DNA of 64,000 nt, taken from NCBI RefSeq assembly GCF_030384885.1, contig NZ_CP128613.1; one strand, written 5' to 3'. The translations under genes were made by a program, and so were the position numbers. The DNA is from Escherichia coli (GTDB taxonomy: Bacteria > Pseudomonadota > Gammaproteobacteria > Enterobacterales > Enterobacteriaceae). Under the pieces are notes generated by a model. The model was not told the DNA's origin. It did not search any database and saw only the letters and a program-made list of their open reading frames with translations. Positions within the stretch are counted from its first letter, which is position 1. Each line of letters begins with the position of its first letter. Below, piece by piece: positions 56,715 through 61,468 of the stretch.

Positions 56715-58036
56715 TGCCTAAACTTGTCACTTGGATGAACAACCAGCGGGTAGGCGAGTTAACGAAGTTAGCCAATGGCGCGCACACCTTTAAGTATGCA
56801 CCGGAGTGGTTAGCCAACCGTTATGCCAGACCGTTATCACTTTCGCTGCCATTGCAGAGGGGGAATATCACCTCTGATGCCGTATTTAACTTCTTCGATA
56901 ACCTGTTACCCGATAGCCCGATTGTACGTGACCGGATCGTTAAACGTTATCATGCTAAATCCAAGCAACCGTTTGATTTATTGTCAGAAATAGGGCGAGA
57001 TAGCGTTGGTGCCGTAACGTTATTACCCGAAAATGAAACCATAACGCGCCCGATAATGGCATGGGAACAGCTCACTGAAGCCAGGCTTGAAGAAGTATTA
57101 ACGGCTTATAAAGCAGATATCCCTCTAGGCATGATTAGAGAAGAAAATGACTTTCGCATCTCGGTTGCTGGCGCGCAGGAGAAGACAGCGCTGCTCAGAA
57201 TAGGCAATGACTGGTGCATTCCGAAAGGAATAACGCCGACGACGCACATCATTAAATTACCGATTGGCGAAATCAGGCAGCCCAATGCGACGCTCGATCT
57301 CAGCCAAAGCGTTGATAATGAGTATTACTGTCTGCTGCTGGCGAAAGAACTTGGGTTGAATGTGCCGGACGCAGAAATCATTAAAGCGGGAAATGTGCGC
57401 GCGTTAGCGGTCGAACGTTTTGACAGGCGTTGGAATGCTGAGCGAACGGTTTTACTTCGCTTGCCACAGGAGGATATGTGTCAGACATTCGGTTTACCTT
57501 CATCGGTGAAATATGAATCAGATGGAGGCCCAGGCATCGCGCGGATCATGGCTTTTTTGATGGGGTCCAGCGAGGCGCTGAAAGATCGCTATGATTTTAT
57601 GAAGTTTCAGGTGTTCCAGTGGTTGATTGGCGCAACGGATGGCCATGCAAAAAACTTCTCCGTATTTATTCAGGCTGGCGGCAGTTATCGACTCACGCCA
57701 TTTTACGACATCATTTCAGCATTTCCGGTATTGGGTGGCGCAGGAATACACATCAGCGATCTCAAACTGGCAATGGGGCTTAACGCATCCAAAGGCAAAA
57801 AAACGGCAATCGATAAAATTTATCCGCGACATTTTCTGGCGACAGCAAAGGTGCTGAAATTTCCGGAAGTGCAGATGCATGAAATCCTGAGTGACTTTGC
57901 CAGAATGATTCCGGCAGCACTGGATAACGTGAAGACTTCATTACCGACAGATTTTCCGGAGAACGTGGTGACGGCAGTTGAAACCAATGTGTTGAGGTTG
58001 CACCGTCGGTTAAGCCGAGAATACGGTATTAAGTAA
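56714..58036 (+). CDS. hipA: Ser/Thr kinase toxin HipA
   Basis: 440 aa from MPKLVTWMNNQRVGEL. The ATG overlaps the hipB TAA by 1 nt. G22, S150, D291 and D309 are all present by hand count, so this is the wild-type allele and not hipA7. Confidence 0.94.
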   Translation: MPKLVTWMNNQRVGELTKLANGAHTFKYAPEWLANRYARPLSLSLPLQRGNITSDAVFNFFDNLLPDSPIVRDRIVKRYHAKSKQPFDLLSEIGRDSVGAVTLLPENETITRPIMAWEQLTEARLEEVLTAYKADIPLGMIREENDFRISVAGAQEKTALLRIGNDWCIPKGITPTTHIIKLPIGEIRQPNATLDLSQSVDNEYYCLLLAKELGLNVPDAEIIKAGNVRALAVERFDRRWNAERTVLLRLPQEDMCQTFGLPSSVKYESDGGPGIARIMAFLMGSSEALKDRYDFMKFQVFQWLIGATDGHAKNFSVFIQAGGSYRLTPFYDIISAFPVLGGAGIHISDLKLAMGLNASKGKKTAIDKIYPRHFLATAKVLKFPEVQMHEILSDFARMIPAALDNVKTSLPTDFPENVVTAVETNVLRLHRRLSREYGIK

Positions 58037-58112
58037 GATATGGGGTTTGGACGTTGTTAATGAGCAGGACAATCATGACCGCCAACGACTGGATTCTGCC
58101 TTGGTTTATGTT

Positions 58113-58144
58113 GGTGCGCATAATGTCAACGCGTTATGTTGAAA
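58113..58144 (+). other. dif: dif-like Xer site forming the left junction (attL) of the filamentous prophage
   Basis: GGTGCGCATAA (exact XerC arm of E. coli dif), then TGTCAACGCG (10 nt), then TTATGTTGAAA (9/11 to XerD arm TTATGTTAAAT). It starts 76 nt after the hipA stop, where K-12 dif lies by my recollection. Confidence 0.75.
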
Positions 58145-58178
58145 AGGCCGCTGCGAAAATCGAATCCCGCAGCGGCCT
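58141..58178 (-). terminator. Intrinsic terminator of the 309-aa cargo gene
   Basis: Perfect 11-bp stem AGGCCGCTGCG/CGCAGCGGCCT (58145-58155 / 58168-58178). On the minus strand it is followed by TTTTC, and that run overlaps the XerD-like arm. Confidence 0.75.
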
Positions 58179-58210
58179 CTTTAGCATAACGTCATTGTGC
58201 GAACCAATAG

Positions 58211-59140
58211 CTACTTTTTCGTATAACTCTCTTCGCATTTAGCCAAAAACAGCAGATTAGTAGCGGTTAAATGAAGGGTATAACTCGCTAAATACTCAGG
58301 AACTTTTGTTATTTCTGCCCCTTGTCCATGTCCACCTTCTTTATTTCGAATGGTTGGAATACCACTCTCAAGTAGAATTCTTATTGAAGAAAATTGATTC
58401 TGGAGGTATTCAGGTACTAAATTATTTGCCAAACAACTGTTAATTAGTTTTTTAGCTGTGTCAGTATCATTAAATTGCCAAGAATGTTTTTTATGTATGG
58501 CTTTCATTAGACTTTCAAAAGATTTGAGGCAATCATTTAAACATTCTTTATATCGCTGATGTCTATAATGCTCATGGGCGGATAAAAACTCATCGTTTGC
58601 TCCGTTATAACTCTTGTTCTTACCAAGAATCTGAAGCGTAGGCTTTACAACATCAGAATGAATGAATTGTGAGTCAACTTTAACCAACTCTCCTGACTCA
58701 AATTGATATCCAAGACCTGCTTCTTTAAACCTGATATTAAGTTCTTCAATAGCATCATCAGGACTTTGCTTTACTAACCCTCTGAATTTCCACTCATTTG
58801 ATCTTATATACCCGTCTATCAGTTTGAAACATATCTCAATGATATCCAAGCATTTTTCATGATCTCTCTCAGCTAGGAAATAGTCAAAAATTGCCCCGAA
58901 ATTCGATTCAGGATACTGTTTGAGAGAGAATACACCATATTCCTTACACAGCGTTTTATGAACGAGTCTGTAAAGCTTACTTGCTTCCGTTTCATAGTCA
59001 CTATCTTCACCGATAGTATCTCTTACAATATGAACAACCTGAACACGAAATGCATTTGGTATATTCGTGTATTGGTAAACATCAGCTACTTCACCTCTTA
59101 ATTTTTTTTGTCTTTTTGAAAATAATTCGAATATAGCCAA
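58211..59140 (-). CDS. AbiJ-NTD4-like / HEPN-motif protein (candidate abortive-infection or toxin RNase)
   Basis: 309 aa from a TTG start with GAGGA 7 nt upstream. The N-terminus MAIFELFSKRQKKLRGEVADVYQYTNIPNAFRVQVVHI resembles the AbiJ N-terminal domain 4 / STM4504-type family (from memory). The C-terminal R265-N-K-E-G-G-H271 (58328-58348) fits the HEPN R-x4-6-H motif. The gene is AT-rich: hand counts gave 18/60 and 23/60 G+C on two lines. Confidence 0.7.
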   Translation of the reverse strand: MAIFELFSKRQKKLRGEVADVYQYTNIPNAFRVQVVHIVRDTIGEDSDYETEASKLYRLVHKTLCKEYGVFSLKQYPESNFGAIFDYFLAERDHEKCLDIIEICFKLIDGYIRSNEWKFRGLVKQSPDDAIEELNIRFKEAGLGYQFESGELVKVDSQFIHSDVVKPTLQILGKNKSYNGANDEFLSAHEHYRHQRYKECLNDCLKSFESLMKAIHKKHSWQFNDTDTAKKLINSCLANNLVPEYLQNQFSSIRILLESGIPTIRNKEGGHGQGAEITKVPEYLASYTLHLTATNLLFLAKCEESYTKK

Positions 59141-59223
59141 TTTATAATCCTCAAAGATATGCCATTAATATGTCTGAGTTGATGAAAATCACACCGCTTT
59201 TACAGTCGTTTTCCACGGTGGAG

Positions 59224-59646
59224 TTACCAGTAATATGAGTTTCTTCTGTGCCACCAATAAAGAAGTCCGTATCCAATGATAAGAATTCCGAAAAACATCA
59301 ACGACATTCCCCAGCCAGTTCCGTACCACGAAACCATATCATCGAAAACTAACCCACCCATTTCACGAACTCCGGCTGCTTCCTTAAGAATTGGTTTGAA
59401 TACCGGAATCAGAAGGGCGATCGCAAGTGGAGCACCCCAGCGAACAAGACCAGTTTCCATTTTGATCCCGAAAAAGATCCCCGCACCGACAACAAGCAAC
59501 CAGACTATCAGGCCAGGCGCAGTTTCTAGTGCTGTTTGCCATTCAACATCGAAAGTTTTCATTAGCCAGGCAACAACTGCCAGACAGAAAGCAAATACGC
59601 CTACAACAACCAGTTCAACGCCGCTTGTTTCGTTATTTCTACTCAT
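59224..59646 (-). CDS. Small four-TM membrane protein of unknown function (prophage cargo)
   Basis: 140 aa from ATG 59646 (MSRNNETSGVELVVVGVFAFCLAVVAWLM...), with four hydrophobic helices. The 189-aa ORF-track form would overlap the upstream gene by 59 nt. It is GC-richer than its neighbours (33/60 on one line). Confidence 0.6.
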   Translation of the reverse strand: MSRNNETSGVELVVVGVFAFCLAVVAWLMKTFDVEWQTALETAPGLIVWLLVVGAGIFFGIKMETGLVRWGAPLAIALLIPVFKPILKEAAGVREMGGLVFDDMVSWYGTGWGMSLMFFGILIIGYGLLYWWHRRNSYYW

Positions 59647-59674
59647 CCTTTTGATCCTTTGTTGCTGTTCAAAA

Positions 59675-59717
59675 TCCGCACAATAAAGAACGTGCAGTGT
59701 AGGTAATACTGCACGTT
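59675..59717 (-). terminator. Hairpin (terminator or attenuator) between the RHH gene and the 4-TM gene
   Basis: Perfect 10-bp stem AACGTGCAGT/ACTGCACGTT (59689-59698 / 59708-59717) with a 9-nt loop, followed on the minus strand by CTTTATTGTG. Confidence 0.55.
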
Positions 59718-59734
59718 TGTACCATTCGTGGTAC

Positions 59735-59917
59735 TTAATCCTTTTGTTTGGCAGACATGAGATCTTCTGCTGCATCTTTAGAGTAGTTATCAATCAGATA
59801 ACCTAAAATCTCTGTCCATGTAATTGTTTTTCCTAGTTTTACACTGGCATTTATAGCCAGTCGTTCTAGTTTCATTTTTCTTTCTTCCGTCACGTTATAA
59901 GTCGTGCGCTTTGCCAT
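59735..59917 (-). CDS. Small ribbon-helix-helix-like protein, probable prophage regulator
   Basis: 60 aa, MAKRTTYNVTEERKMKLERLAINASVKLGKTITWTEILGYLIDNY... shows a beta-strand then two helices. It is divergent from the replication gene, the position of repressors such as RstR in integrating inoviruses. Confidence 0.5.
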   Translation of the reverse strand: MAKRTTYNVTEERKMKLERLAINASVKLGKTITWTEILGYLIDNYSKDAAEDLMSAKQKD

Positions 59918-59964
59918 TTTTTACGCTCGTTCAATGCAATATTTGAAGTGAGTATACATGCTCA

Positions 59965-60043
59965 TGAACTCATATCATCCAAGCCTCTTGAACTCACTAG
60001 CTCACTGGTGTAATGTTTAAACACTAATGAACTACTGAACTCA
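59965..60043. repeat. Iterated TGAACTCA motifs in the divergent phage control region
   Basis: TGAACTCA occurs at 59965, 59989 and 60036, and TGAACTAC at 60028, all in the same orientation, between the RHH gene and gII. Confidence 0.6.
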
Positions 60044-60086
60044 TGTGTTAGTAAGTCGTCATTTTTGTAATTTTGAGGATTTATTC

Positions 60087-61139
60087 GTGATCGATTGGCT
60101 TACCGGGATTTTCCCTTGCACACACAAACCGCTTCCGGCGGGGAGTGTTGTCAGCGTTGATGCTGACGGTGCAATTGAGTGGGAAACCGTTAAGCGACTG
60201 ACTGTTCGCGGTTCGCATGAAGCAACGATGAAAGTACGATCGATAGGATCTAATGGCGAAGGTAAAGCGACACATTTGTACATTGATGGTAATCCTTCCA
60301 AGTTTCTGCAGGGGCATTCTGTTGTTGGGTCGGATGATATACAAGGGCTCATGTTGACGGTCTATGCCAGGATTTTATCCTTATTGAATATTCCTCATGA
60401 TTTAGCGGCTTATAAAGCCGTTATGGCAGGTCAGTATAAAATTTCACGTATTGACATTAATTACATGTATTCATTATCTACGCTGGAAAATGTCAGATCA
60501 TGGCTTTATGCCGCCGAATTTAAAGCTAAAACACGCCATGGTCGCGCATGTGGGAAAGGCGGTACAGTTTATTTAGGTAAAAACTCCCGTCGATGGAGTC
60601 TGAAATTTTATTCAAAATATGATGAACACGTTTCTGGTAAAAAAGGGCACCAGATAGCCGAAGAGTTTGTACGAGCCGGGTTACTGGACTGGACGAAAGA
60701 TAAATTACGTATTGAATTAACATTAAGAACAACTGAGCTTATTGATTTAAATTTAACGCTTGGCGCTAACTGGAATATGAAAACACCACGTCAATTATTC
60801 TCTGAATATGTAGGGAGAATAGAAATGAATCAGAATGCTATTTTAAGTGATGAAAAAATAACGAAACTGCCAAGAAAAATACAGTCAACTTATTTACTTT
60901 GGAAACAAGGGGCTAACATGAAAGAAATGTTACCTCATAACACTTTTTATCGCCATAGAAGAGAATTGCTTTCGTTCGGTATCGATATTAATTTCTATTG
61001 TGATTCACCAGACTCTAATAACGTTGTTCCGCTAATAAGAACGCTGGAAGCCAAGCCAGCGGAAATCCCCTTATGGATTTATGAGAAAGGTTTTATTTTC
61101 GATTACAACCGTATTTCGCACGCCAGTAGCTGGCATTAA
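60087..61139 (+). CDS. Filamentous-phage replication initiation protein (gpII homologue)
   Basis: 350 aa from GTG 60087 (GAGGA 7 nt upstream), VIDWLTGIFPC... Matches to f1 gpII motifs: GNPSKFLQGHSVVGS vs ASPAKVLQGHNVFGT, ISRIDINY vs ISRIDATF, NNVVPLIRT vs NNVVPLVRF. Confidence 0.85.
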   Translation: MIDWLTGIFPCTHKPLPAGSVVSVDADGAIEWETVKRLTVRGSHEATMKVRSIGSNGEGKATHLYIDGNPSKFLQGHSVVGSDDIQGLMLTVYARILSLLNIPHDLAAYKAVMAGQYKISRIDINYMYSLSTLENVRSWLYAAEFKAKTRHGRACGKGGTVYLGKNSRRWSLKFYSKYDEHVSGKKGHQIAEEFVRAGLLDWTKDKLRIELTLRTTELIDLNLTLGANWNMKTPRQLFSEYVGRIEMNQNAILSDEKITKLPRKIQSTYLLWKQGANMKEMLPHNTFYRHRRELLSFGIDINFYCDSPDSNNVVPLIRTLEAKPAEIPLWIYEKGFIFDYNRISHASSWH

Positions 61140-61150
61140 AGGAAAGTAAT

Positions 61151-61468
61151 ATGTCTAATTATGGTCTTTTCGTTAAGGGTAAAATGTTGGGAGCCCGCCA
61201 ACGTAATAAAGTTAATGGTCAGGGCTATTATAATGAAATTGGTATTGGCCTTGAAATACCTGATGGTTTTGGTGGTACAAAGCAGGATCAAATTATTATT
61301 CGAGTTTCTCAGGCTCTCGTTAACGCAGGTCTAATGAACCAGGCGAATGCTTTCATTGGGAAATTAGTTCAAATTCCTGTCTATGTCCGTGCGTGGTCAA
61401 TGGAGGGTAGGGAAGGTGTAACTTATAATGTTTCTTCCGATGGTGGCATCGCAGAGATCAAAGGTTAA
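61151..61468 (+). CDS. Probable ssDNA-binding protein (gpV position)
   Basis: 105-aa ORF directly after gII and before the gVII/gIX analogues. The assignment is by position only; I saw no obvious similarity to f1 g5p. Confidence 0.5.
   Translation: MSNYGLFVKGKMLGARQRNKVNGQGYYNEIGIGLEIPDGFGGTKQDQIIIRVSQALVNAGLMNQANAFIGKLVQIPVYVRAWSMEGREGVTYNVSSDGGIAEIKG

Follow-up and report, generated by a model that had tools for sequence, protein, structure and literature searches.

A single-gene AbiJ_NTD4-HEPN cassette in the attP-adjacent cargo slot of an Escherichia coli filamentous prophage: a candidate defence system

In Escherichia coli, a filamentous prophage of the CUS-1/YpfPhi type carries a compact gene cassette of probable defensive function beside its attachment site. 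The prophage lies in a 64,000-nucleotide stretch of contig NZ_CP128613.1 (assembly GCF_030384885.1), which as a whole is referred to as the window. Here, three minus-strand open reading frames (ORFs) are located between a dif-like junction (58113-58144) and the phage gene gII. A preliminary description of this DNA treated all three as one cargo block. Their coordinates are as claimed there, but only the gene for a 309-aa protein of the STM4504/CBY_0614 family and its leader vary; the 60-aa and 140-aa genes stay with any cargo and belong to the CUS-1/YpfPhi-type backbone. Taken as a whole, the explanation that best fits the locus, and that we regard as probable, places it at the lysogeny-side end of the prophage and takes the cargo protein to be a single-protein sensor-plus-RNase system that acts in abortive infection or against other mobile genetic elements. 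The cassette and the parts of its product are as follows.

58208-59223, minus strand: variable cargo cassette of 1016 bp, made up of the STM4504 gene and an 83-nt leader; GC 34.7%
58211-59140, minus strand: 309-aa gene with a TTG start; candidate single-protein HEPN defence effector
58637-59128, minus strand: AbiJ_NTD4 domain (Pfam PF18863), residues 5-168; E 8.6e-27, 94.9 bits against a gathering score of 34
58226-58633, minus strand: HEPN domain (Pfam DUF7014), residues 170-305; E 1.1e-77
58328-58348, minus strand: RNKEGGH, the HEPN R-phi-x4-6-H catalytic motif, residues 265-271
59141-59223, minus strand: leader of 83 nt ahead of the cargo gene; GAGGA lies 8 nt upstream of the TTG; moves with the cassette

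The 309-aa protein is identical to WP_000963948.1, named 'STM4504/CBY_0614 family protein' in RefSeq. The corresponding NCBIfam model (NF046078) scores 456.1 bits against a cut-off of 150, with residues 23-300 aligned to positions 1-280 of 281, and the family consensus begins at the same residue as the TTG start. The protein also matches phrog_20794. Together with the Pfam match to AbiJ_NTD4, which recurs in 114 of 114 sampled relatives, these results bear out the earlier assignment to the AbiJ-NTD4/STM4504 type. The N-terminal domain is helical with a C-terminal beta-hairpin and is presumed to be a sensor or autoinhibitory domain. The combination of AbiJ-NTD4 with a HEPN domain of the AbiJ type, whose prototype is CBY_0614, was described in 2013 (Anantharaman et al., PMC3710099). 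In the model proposed there, N-terminal domains of this sort detect components of the invader and hold back a suicidal HEPN RNase. The 309-aa protein shares family and two-domain layout with CBY_0614, and there is no difference at the protein level; what is new in the window is where the gene sits, in a cassette next to the attP of an enterobacterial inovirus.

The C-terminal domain is a HEPN domain by its helical-bundle fold. This fold was found in the profile and structure searches that had been proposed as a check on a HEPN or AbiJ-like prediction; the AlphaFold2 model, built with 114 diverse sequences, has a mean pLDDT of 90.6. Current Pfam carves the domain out as DUF7014. Precomputed Abi_C matches on homologues, made with another version of that model, reach E <=1e-5, and at E<0.01 the HEPN model matches 20 of 114 relatives and the Abi_C model 10 of 114. 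RNKEGGH is present at R265-H271 as first reported. Across 137 representatives with 39-58% identity to the query, conservation is 0.99 at R265, 0.98 at N266, 0.99 at H271 and 0.99 at G272, and G274 is likewise kept at 98-99%. The motif is thus under selection and not a chance string. Overall identity of about 70% is retained from E. coli to Vibrio, Shewanella and Halomonas, in a family that counts 3,230 word-indexed matches and 905 clusters at 50% identity with E<1e-30.

The slot that holds this gene has sharp boundaries. In alignments of 8-9 related prophages, homology breaks on the left at 58207/58208 and on the right at 59223/59224, the latter coinciding with the 140-aa stop codon. Relatives that occupy the same hipA-dif position have wholly different sequence between the 140-aa gene and the junction. 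The cargo is therefore the 309-aa gene and its leader only, and the alignments agree with the earlier view of this gene as accessory prophage cargo. Among 5,426 complete E. coli genomes searched with the backbone region 59224-60044 (the 140-aa and 60-aa genes and the intergenic sequence), 149 match at least part of the query, and the STM4504 cassette is present in 17. When 44 slot instances from E. coli and Salmonella loci, 23 IMG/VR contigs and 8 GTDB genomes were surveyed with BLAST, they yielded about 14 sequence-unrelated alleles of 0.4-1.2 kb. The IMG/VR contigs were chosen independently of cargo; the STM4504 cassette occurs in four of these loci (L025-L028), that is, in 4 of 14 closed slots and 4 of the 22 with a full-length 140-aa gene. 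All closed-slot alleles have a GC content of 34-37%, as against about 41% for the phage backbone and about 48-52% for the host flank. This uniformity among unrelated sequences suggests that the cassettes are drawn from a common low-GC gene pool. Two IMG/VR loci, L044 and L045 (4423-4432), have only 8 nt between the 140-aa stop codon and attP and represent the unoccupied state of the hotspot. With conserved bounds, many unrelated alleles and an empty state, the slot is an inovirus hypervariable cargo region. The alternative cargoes are listed below.

Zn-ribbon protein with a second ORF (114 aa in RefSeq, 159 aa in the ORF scan)
L004, 3350-4144: 264-aa REase_DpnII-MboI protein with a PDC-S35-like N-terminus, and a DUF6953 protein
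CxxCx11CxxC 'mobilome' protein with a small ORF
Two unannotated ORFs
250-aa ORF
369-aa ORF, in UTI89
L023, 2187-2921: Fic/Doc toxin (PDC-S23), with the 140-aa gene replaced too
L042, 4419-5559: 368-aa CAP12/Pycsar-type TIR protein (PF10137, 2e-19; PDC-S35)

The REase DpnII-MboI, CAP12/Pycsar TIR and Fic/Doc alleles bear effector domains of biological conflict systems, and several of the alleles without a recognisable domain have transmembrane segments. A comparable arrangement exists in Vibrio, where the variable loci of dif-integrating filamentous prophages show an enrichment for defence genes (Steensen et al. 2024, PMC11630473; PMC12715192). As in those loci, a defined slot in a small Xer-integrated inovirus is bounded on both sides by conserved phage sequence and holds many unrelated low-GC alleles of about 0.4-1.2 kb, some of them recognisable defence genes. 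In contrast to the Vibrio loci, the slot in the window belongs to phages of the CUS-1/YpfPhi type in Enterobacterales hosts. It also differs in position, lying between attP and the leftward 140-aa gene and not, like the pHVRs of CTX-I inoviruses, between zot and xafT (PMC12715192). Two small ORFs upstream of attP in L001 have no significant Pfam match, and no XafT-like gene was identified there. A description of the enterobacterial CUS-1/YpfPhi slot as a defence hotspot was not found in the literature.

The cassette is mobile among phage lineages. The 1016 bp are 100% identical between the phage of the window and an NGF1/NC101-type phage that has an HTH_3 repressor instead of the 60-aa protein, whereas gII is 80% and the 140-aa gene 97.2% identical between the two; the sequence therefore moves as a cassette. 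In tandem Salmonella inoviruses this slot contains a copy with 96.6% identity, and a further Salmonella prophage (L020) has lost the 140-aa gene and kept the cassette. These patterns are most simply explained if the cassette was exchanged recently, through recombination in the conserved flanks. Homologues are also found outside inoviruses. For instance, in Klebsiella-like genomes a homologue with 74% identity is paired with an integrase in an islet of two genes beside proBA. In Vibrio cholerae, another homologue makes up a cassette of its own in the superintegron, amid toxin-antitoxin and acetyltransferase cassettes. On E. coli plasmids there are 477 matching places, and in this species the family appears to be commoner on plasmids than in inoviruses. 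On the one plasmid inspected, pLD22-1-135kb of E. coli (L024, 5072-6013), a 313-aa paralogue (WP_000974762.1; 72.7% nucleotide identity) stands alone between insertion sequence remnants and adjoins a MacB/TolC efflux operon. No gene is conserved beside the homologues, which argues against a two-component toxin-antitoxin system as well as against a partnership with the 140-aa protein.

From these features we infer expression, an RNase activity, a trigger and a defence phenotype for the 309-aa protein. The gene would be transcribed leftward with or behind the lysogeny genes, from the lysogeny-side unit, and transcription would end at the attP hairpin. In the lysogen the protein would be kept inactive, with NTD4 restraining the HEPN domain. 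On invasion by a phage or another mobile element, one of the invader's products would engage NTD4, upon which the HEPN site formed by R265, N266 and H271 would cleave RNA, so that translation is halted and the infection is aborted or establishment of the invader is blocked. The lysogen population, and therefore the inovirus, would be protected, and the cassette would spread among inovirus lineages via recombination in the conserved flanks.

Other HEPN proteins offer partial parallels. In Staphylococcus aureus, the Abi_C protein SadR degrades single-stranded and total RNA, and mutants of R, N or H in its RNEYGDAH motif lose both RNase activity and phage defence (PMC13590631). Lactococcus AbiJ remains mechanistically uncharacterised; its escape mutations map to single-stranded DNA (ssDNA)-annealing proteins (PMC13064643). 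Like the 309-aa protein, AbiJ (Abi-859) and SadR are encoded by single genes and have a C-terminal HEPN domain with R-N-x(4-5)-H, which is of Abi_C type in these two and possibly also in the 309-aa protein; their N-terminal domains differ from NTD4, which was present in only 3 of 2,815 Abi_C proteins surveyed (PMC13590631). HepS from the Salmonella Gifsy-1 prophage (PDB 9oik) resembles the 309-aa protein in the HEPN fold only, at 11% identity; it resides on a tailed prophage, and its non-HEPN parts are unlike those of the 309-aa protein. A search of the full model against BFVD viral structures gave nothing at E <=0.001, and a PDB sequence search with the family profile gave nothing meaningful.

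Several observations weigh against a defensive role. HEPN domains are also found in roles outside defence. On the generic Pfam models the 309-aa protein is sub-threshold, with 12.8 bits against 24 (E 0.14) for Abi_C (PF14355) and E 0.15 for HEPN. The proposed PADLOC check returned from PADLOC-DB v2 a single match, to the candidate model PDC-S32 (E 4.5e-10; residues 6-223, mostly the N-terminal domain), and none to a named, validated defence system. Because of these two results the protein is termed AbiJ-like and not AbiJ. No structural counterpart of NTD4 that would suggest a ligand was found. In a promoter scan, the 83-nt leader contains no promoter-like site, and leftward transcription could end further upstream, at a hairpin 3' of the 60-aa gene. 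The term 'defence hotspot' rests on four domain-bearing alleles, because most of the others, about 10 of roughly 14, have no recognisable domain or function. Finally, no experimental work on the AbiJ_NTD4/STM4504 family or on the enterobacterial slot was found in the literature; 'STM4504' led only to a prediction paper on type III secretion system effectors and 'AbiJ_NTD4' only to a sewage plasmidome survey. In this respect the novelty claimed in the preliminary description stands, but the domain architecture (2013), the RefSeq name and the Vibrio defence loci had already been published.

The defensive reading has to be set against other functions for the protein. It could act in competition between inoviruses, against ssDNA elements or in tuning replication of its carrier, with targets other than lytic double-stranded DNA phages. 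A resident YpfPhi gives partial protection against superinfection (PMC4266046), the escape mutants of lactococcal AbiJ point to ssDNA-annealing proteins (PMC13064643), and it is common for an E. coli genome to contain multiple copies or kinds of such prophages (median 2, maximum 16 places per genome). Such a specialized target is nonetheless unlikely. The family extends far beyond inovirus hosts and contexts, with its 905 clusters and its members in integron cassettes, islets and plasmids, and the presence of the same cassette in two inovirus lineages argues against lineage-specific exclusion. Moreover, superinfection immunity of this phage type is ascribed to the repressor (PMC4266046).

The prophage is Xer-excisable and unstable, and the HEPN protein could instead be an addiction or stabilisation toxin that penalises its loss without any defence against other phages. 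We consider this quite improbable. The preliminary description noted that no MNT-type or other antitoxin is adjacent, and this holds here and in other genomes: the neighbours of the 309-aa gene are the attP hairpin and the 140-aa gene, the adjacent MNT nucleotidyltransferase that defines HEPN-MNT toxin-antitoxin systems is absent, and homologues elsewhere have no conserved neighbour. Neither at this locus nor elsewhere is there an obvious antisense or repeat RNA beside the gene, and a stable toxin without a labile antidote could not effect post-segregational killing. The cassette is also present in only 17 of the 149 E. coli genomes that match the backbone query, so it is not phage maintenance machinery.

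The three leftward genes might also form one acquired module, in which the 60-aa regulator and the 140-aa membrane protein belong with the HEPN protein and the membrane protein is a partner, effector or antitoxin. They are co-oriented and adjacent with short gaps, and in the NGF1-type phage a block of at least 95% similarity covers both the cargo and the 140-aa gene. Even so, a common module is very unlikely. The 140-aa protein is 97-99% identical beside six unrelated cargoes and the 60-aa protein is identical beside all cargo types compared. Homology breaks precisely at the 140-aa stop codon, and in L020, Vibrio cassettes, integrase islets and plasmids the HEPN gene occurs without the 140-aa gene. 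Across two phage lineages the cargo is 100% and the 140-aa gene 97.2% identical. The caveats attached to the preliminary description are all real. An 83-nt gap (59141-59223) separates the two larger genes, their GC contents contrast (34.7% in the 309-aa and 45.6% in the 140-aa gene), and the 60-aa gene is followed by a hairpin. The further caveat in that description, independent acquisition, is the correct reading.

That the HEPN domain is catalytically inert or ligand-binding only, and the gene neutral hitch-hiking cargo, is highly improbable: non-catalytic HEPN domains are common (those of sacsin and MtlR, found among the matches, are examples) and the protein is sub-threshold on the generic HEPN and Abi_C models, but conservation of R, N and H and of the sequence as a whole as far as Halomonas speaks for strong purifying selection on catalytic residues, and in an inovirus genome of about 9 kb, useless DNA should be selected against.

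The left edge of the slot is formed by the phage attachment site, which has the following parts.

58111-58207, plus strand: remnant of the phage attP, at the attL junction; bounds the cargo slot on the left
58113-58144: dif-like site 1, GGTGCGCATAA-TGTCAACGCG-TTATGTTGAAA
58147-58178: GC-rich 17-bp hairpin stem between the two dif-like sites
58181-58207: inverted dif-like site 2, reading GGTTCGCACAA-TGACG-TTATGCTAAAG on the minus strand
58143-58182, minus strand: terminator-like hairpin with UUUU after it, immediately 3' of the cargo gene

Read directly from the sequence, the junction is a hybrid dif-like site with a 10-nt centre. No match to E. coli dif at up to three mismatches is present in the window; each arm of site 2 agrees at 9 of 11 positions with the E. 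coli dif sequence. As ssDNA, 58111-58207 is predicted to fold into a single long forked hairpin (dG -32.7 kcal/mol, z -8.2), and the inverted repeat was also detected separately. The block is kept in every cargo variant and at the internal junctions of tandem prophages, with conservation ending at 58207. Judged by sequence and predicted folding, attP is of the CTXphi-type Xer architecture, with two inverted dif-like sites and a forked ssDNA hairpin, as has likewise been proposed for YpfPhi (PMC4266046). On the minus strand, the RNA of 58143-58182 is predicted to fold with a dG of -30 kcal/mol (z -6.5; none of 200 shuffles was as stable) and is invariant across cargo types. Since this terminator-like hairpin is the central stem of the attP hairpin, the stem may have a dual role and double as intrinsic terminator of the minus-strand transcript. 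The cargo is wedged between the leftward genes and this combined attP/terminator element.

On the other side of the slot, the leftward backbone genes and their control region are arranged as follows.

59224-59646, minus strand: 140-aa membrane protein gene; phrog_4174, no Pfam match
59680-59734, minus strand: two hairpins and a U-rich tract between the 60-aa and 140-aa genes; candidate attenuator or terminator
59735-59917, minus strand: 60-aa gene in the rstR position, divergent from gII; phrog_2503
59918-60044, no strand assigned: divergent regulatory region between the leftward genes and gII

The family of the 140-aa protein is restricted to Enterobacterales. It had been described as a four-helix membrane protein; on the Kyte-Doolittle scale three strong hydrophobic segments stand and the fourth is weaker. 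A mechanically extended form of its ORF begins at a TTG 49 codons upstream; the segment concerned (59629-59793, minus strand) matches the first 47 positions of phrog_6875 (E 2.5e-20), overlaps the hairpins and the end of the 60-aa gene, is not called by RefSeq and is probably an annotation artefact in some phage records. The hairpin 3' of the 60-aa gene has a 10-bp stem (59689-59717) followed by UUCUUUAUU, with a total dG of -20.8 kcal/mol (z -3.3). By comparison, the fold of the 83-nt leader is ordinary (z -0.9). An Rfam scan over 57500-60500 gave nothing close to a gathering score.

The 60-aa protein (WP_001335098.1) is a candidate phage repressor of the backbone; HTH-type phages have a 148-aa HTH_3 protein in its position. 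It had been called ribbon-helix-helix (RHH)-like, which the comparisons do not establish. The protein has no Pfam, NCBIfam or PDB sequence match, and an hhalign comparison with Arc, CopG, ParD and Mnt recovers the RHH register with a probability of 3.3% (E 0.013). The promoter scan, whose total matches stay below shuffle expectation, returned one plausible leftward promoter at 59951-59978, upstream of the 60-aa gene. RTGAGTTCA occurs four times in the window against 0.8 expected, and three direct copies lie in the divergent region within 59965-60044, at 59965, 59989 and 60036 on the minus strand. These repeats are candidate operators for the phage regulator or for control of gII.

The prophage as a whole is a CUS-1/YpfPhi-type inovirus, Xer-integrated at E. 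coli dif beside hipBA. The following landmarks surround the cargo region.

Up to 58036, plus strand: ECSE_1600/Ag43-like autotransporter gene, hipB and hipA; host flank of the prophage
60045-61139: gII, with Phage_CRI (1.4e-69) and G2P_X_C
61151-61468: gV, followed by coat, attachment and assembly genes

Phages of this type are Xer-integrated and often tandem, and their attL-adjacent ORFs, whose function is not known, differ in content between YpfPhi and CUS-1 (PMC4266046). CUS-1 (E. coli O18:K1:H7) and YpfPhi (Yersinia pestis) agree with the phage of the window in type, integration at dif, tandem copies, a leftward regulator and attL-adjacent ORFs. In contrast, they have an HTH (RstR-like) regulator where the window has the 60-aa protein; the gII of the window is about 80% identical to that of the HTH type, and its cargo is the STM4504 gene, whereas the HTH-type relative in UTI89 has the 369-aa ORF. 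Against a phage collection, megablast of 58000-60050 gave no match and tblastn gave distant homologues only, at 25-43% identity.

E. coli NCTC9104 is annotated with the same arrangement as the window, and its prophage is a tandem pair. In this strain (L001, 12001-26044) and in Salmonella (L017/L018), tandem copies of the prophage duplicate the HEPN cassette. In E. coli strain E1 (L007, 4796-5852), a second 60-aa gene and a complete gII come after a truncated gII, an arrangement that looks like a partial internal duplication or a tandem-junction remnant. A contig binned as 'Candidatus Nanosynbacter' (L048, JARKOR010000214.1) has a 99%-identical 140-aa gene with the Zn-ribbon cargo allele and is probably a mis-binned enterobacterial contig.

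A bolder proposal, which we consider unlikely, is that the attP-adjacent slot of CUS-1/YpfPhi-type inoviruses is a largely unmined hotspot of compact one- or two-gene immune systems, most of them unannotated, in Enterobacterales and that the NTD4-HEPN protein senses a component specific to ssDNA replication, in analogy to lactococcal AbiJ and its escape mutations. If so, an ssDNA phage would carry a defence against rival ssDNA phages or recombination-dependent invaders and spare itself, and the sensor would be NTD4, a fold without a solved counterpart.

As it stands, the protein is an ordinary member of a curated, RefSeq-named family and the slot is the same kind of feature as the Vibrio loci. 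Current concepts are unchanged, and the cassette is a compact candidate for experiment, not a surprise. The slot itself is a source of new candidate systems, given the many alleles without a recognisable domain. If the 309-aa gene does defend its host, it would offer a compact test case for a very widespread family that keeps about 70% identity across Gammaproteobacteria. Small dif-integrated inoviruses of E. coli, Salmonella and Klebsiella would then trade defence cassettes in parallel with tailed prophages, satellites and Vibrio inoviruses, and this trade could account in part for the modest advantage in fitness that CUS-1 and YpfPhi are reported to confer.

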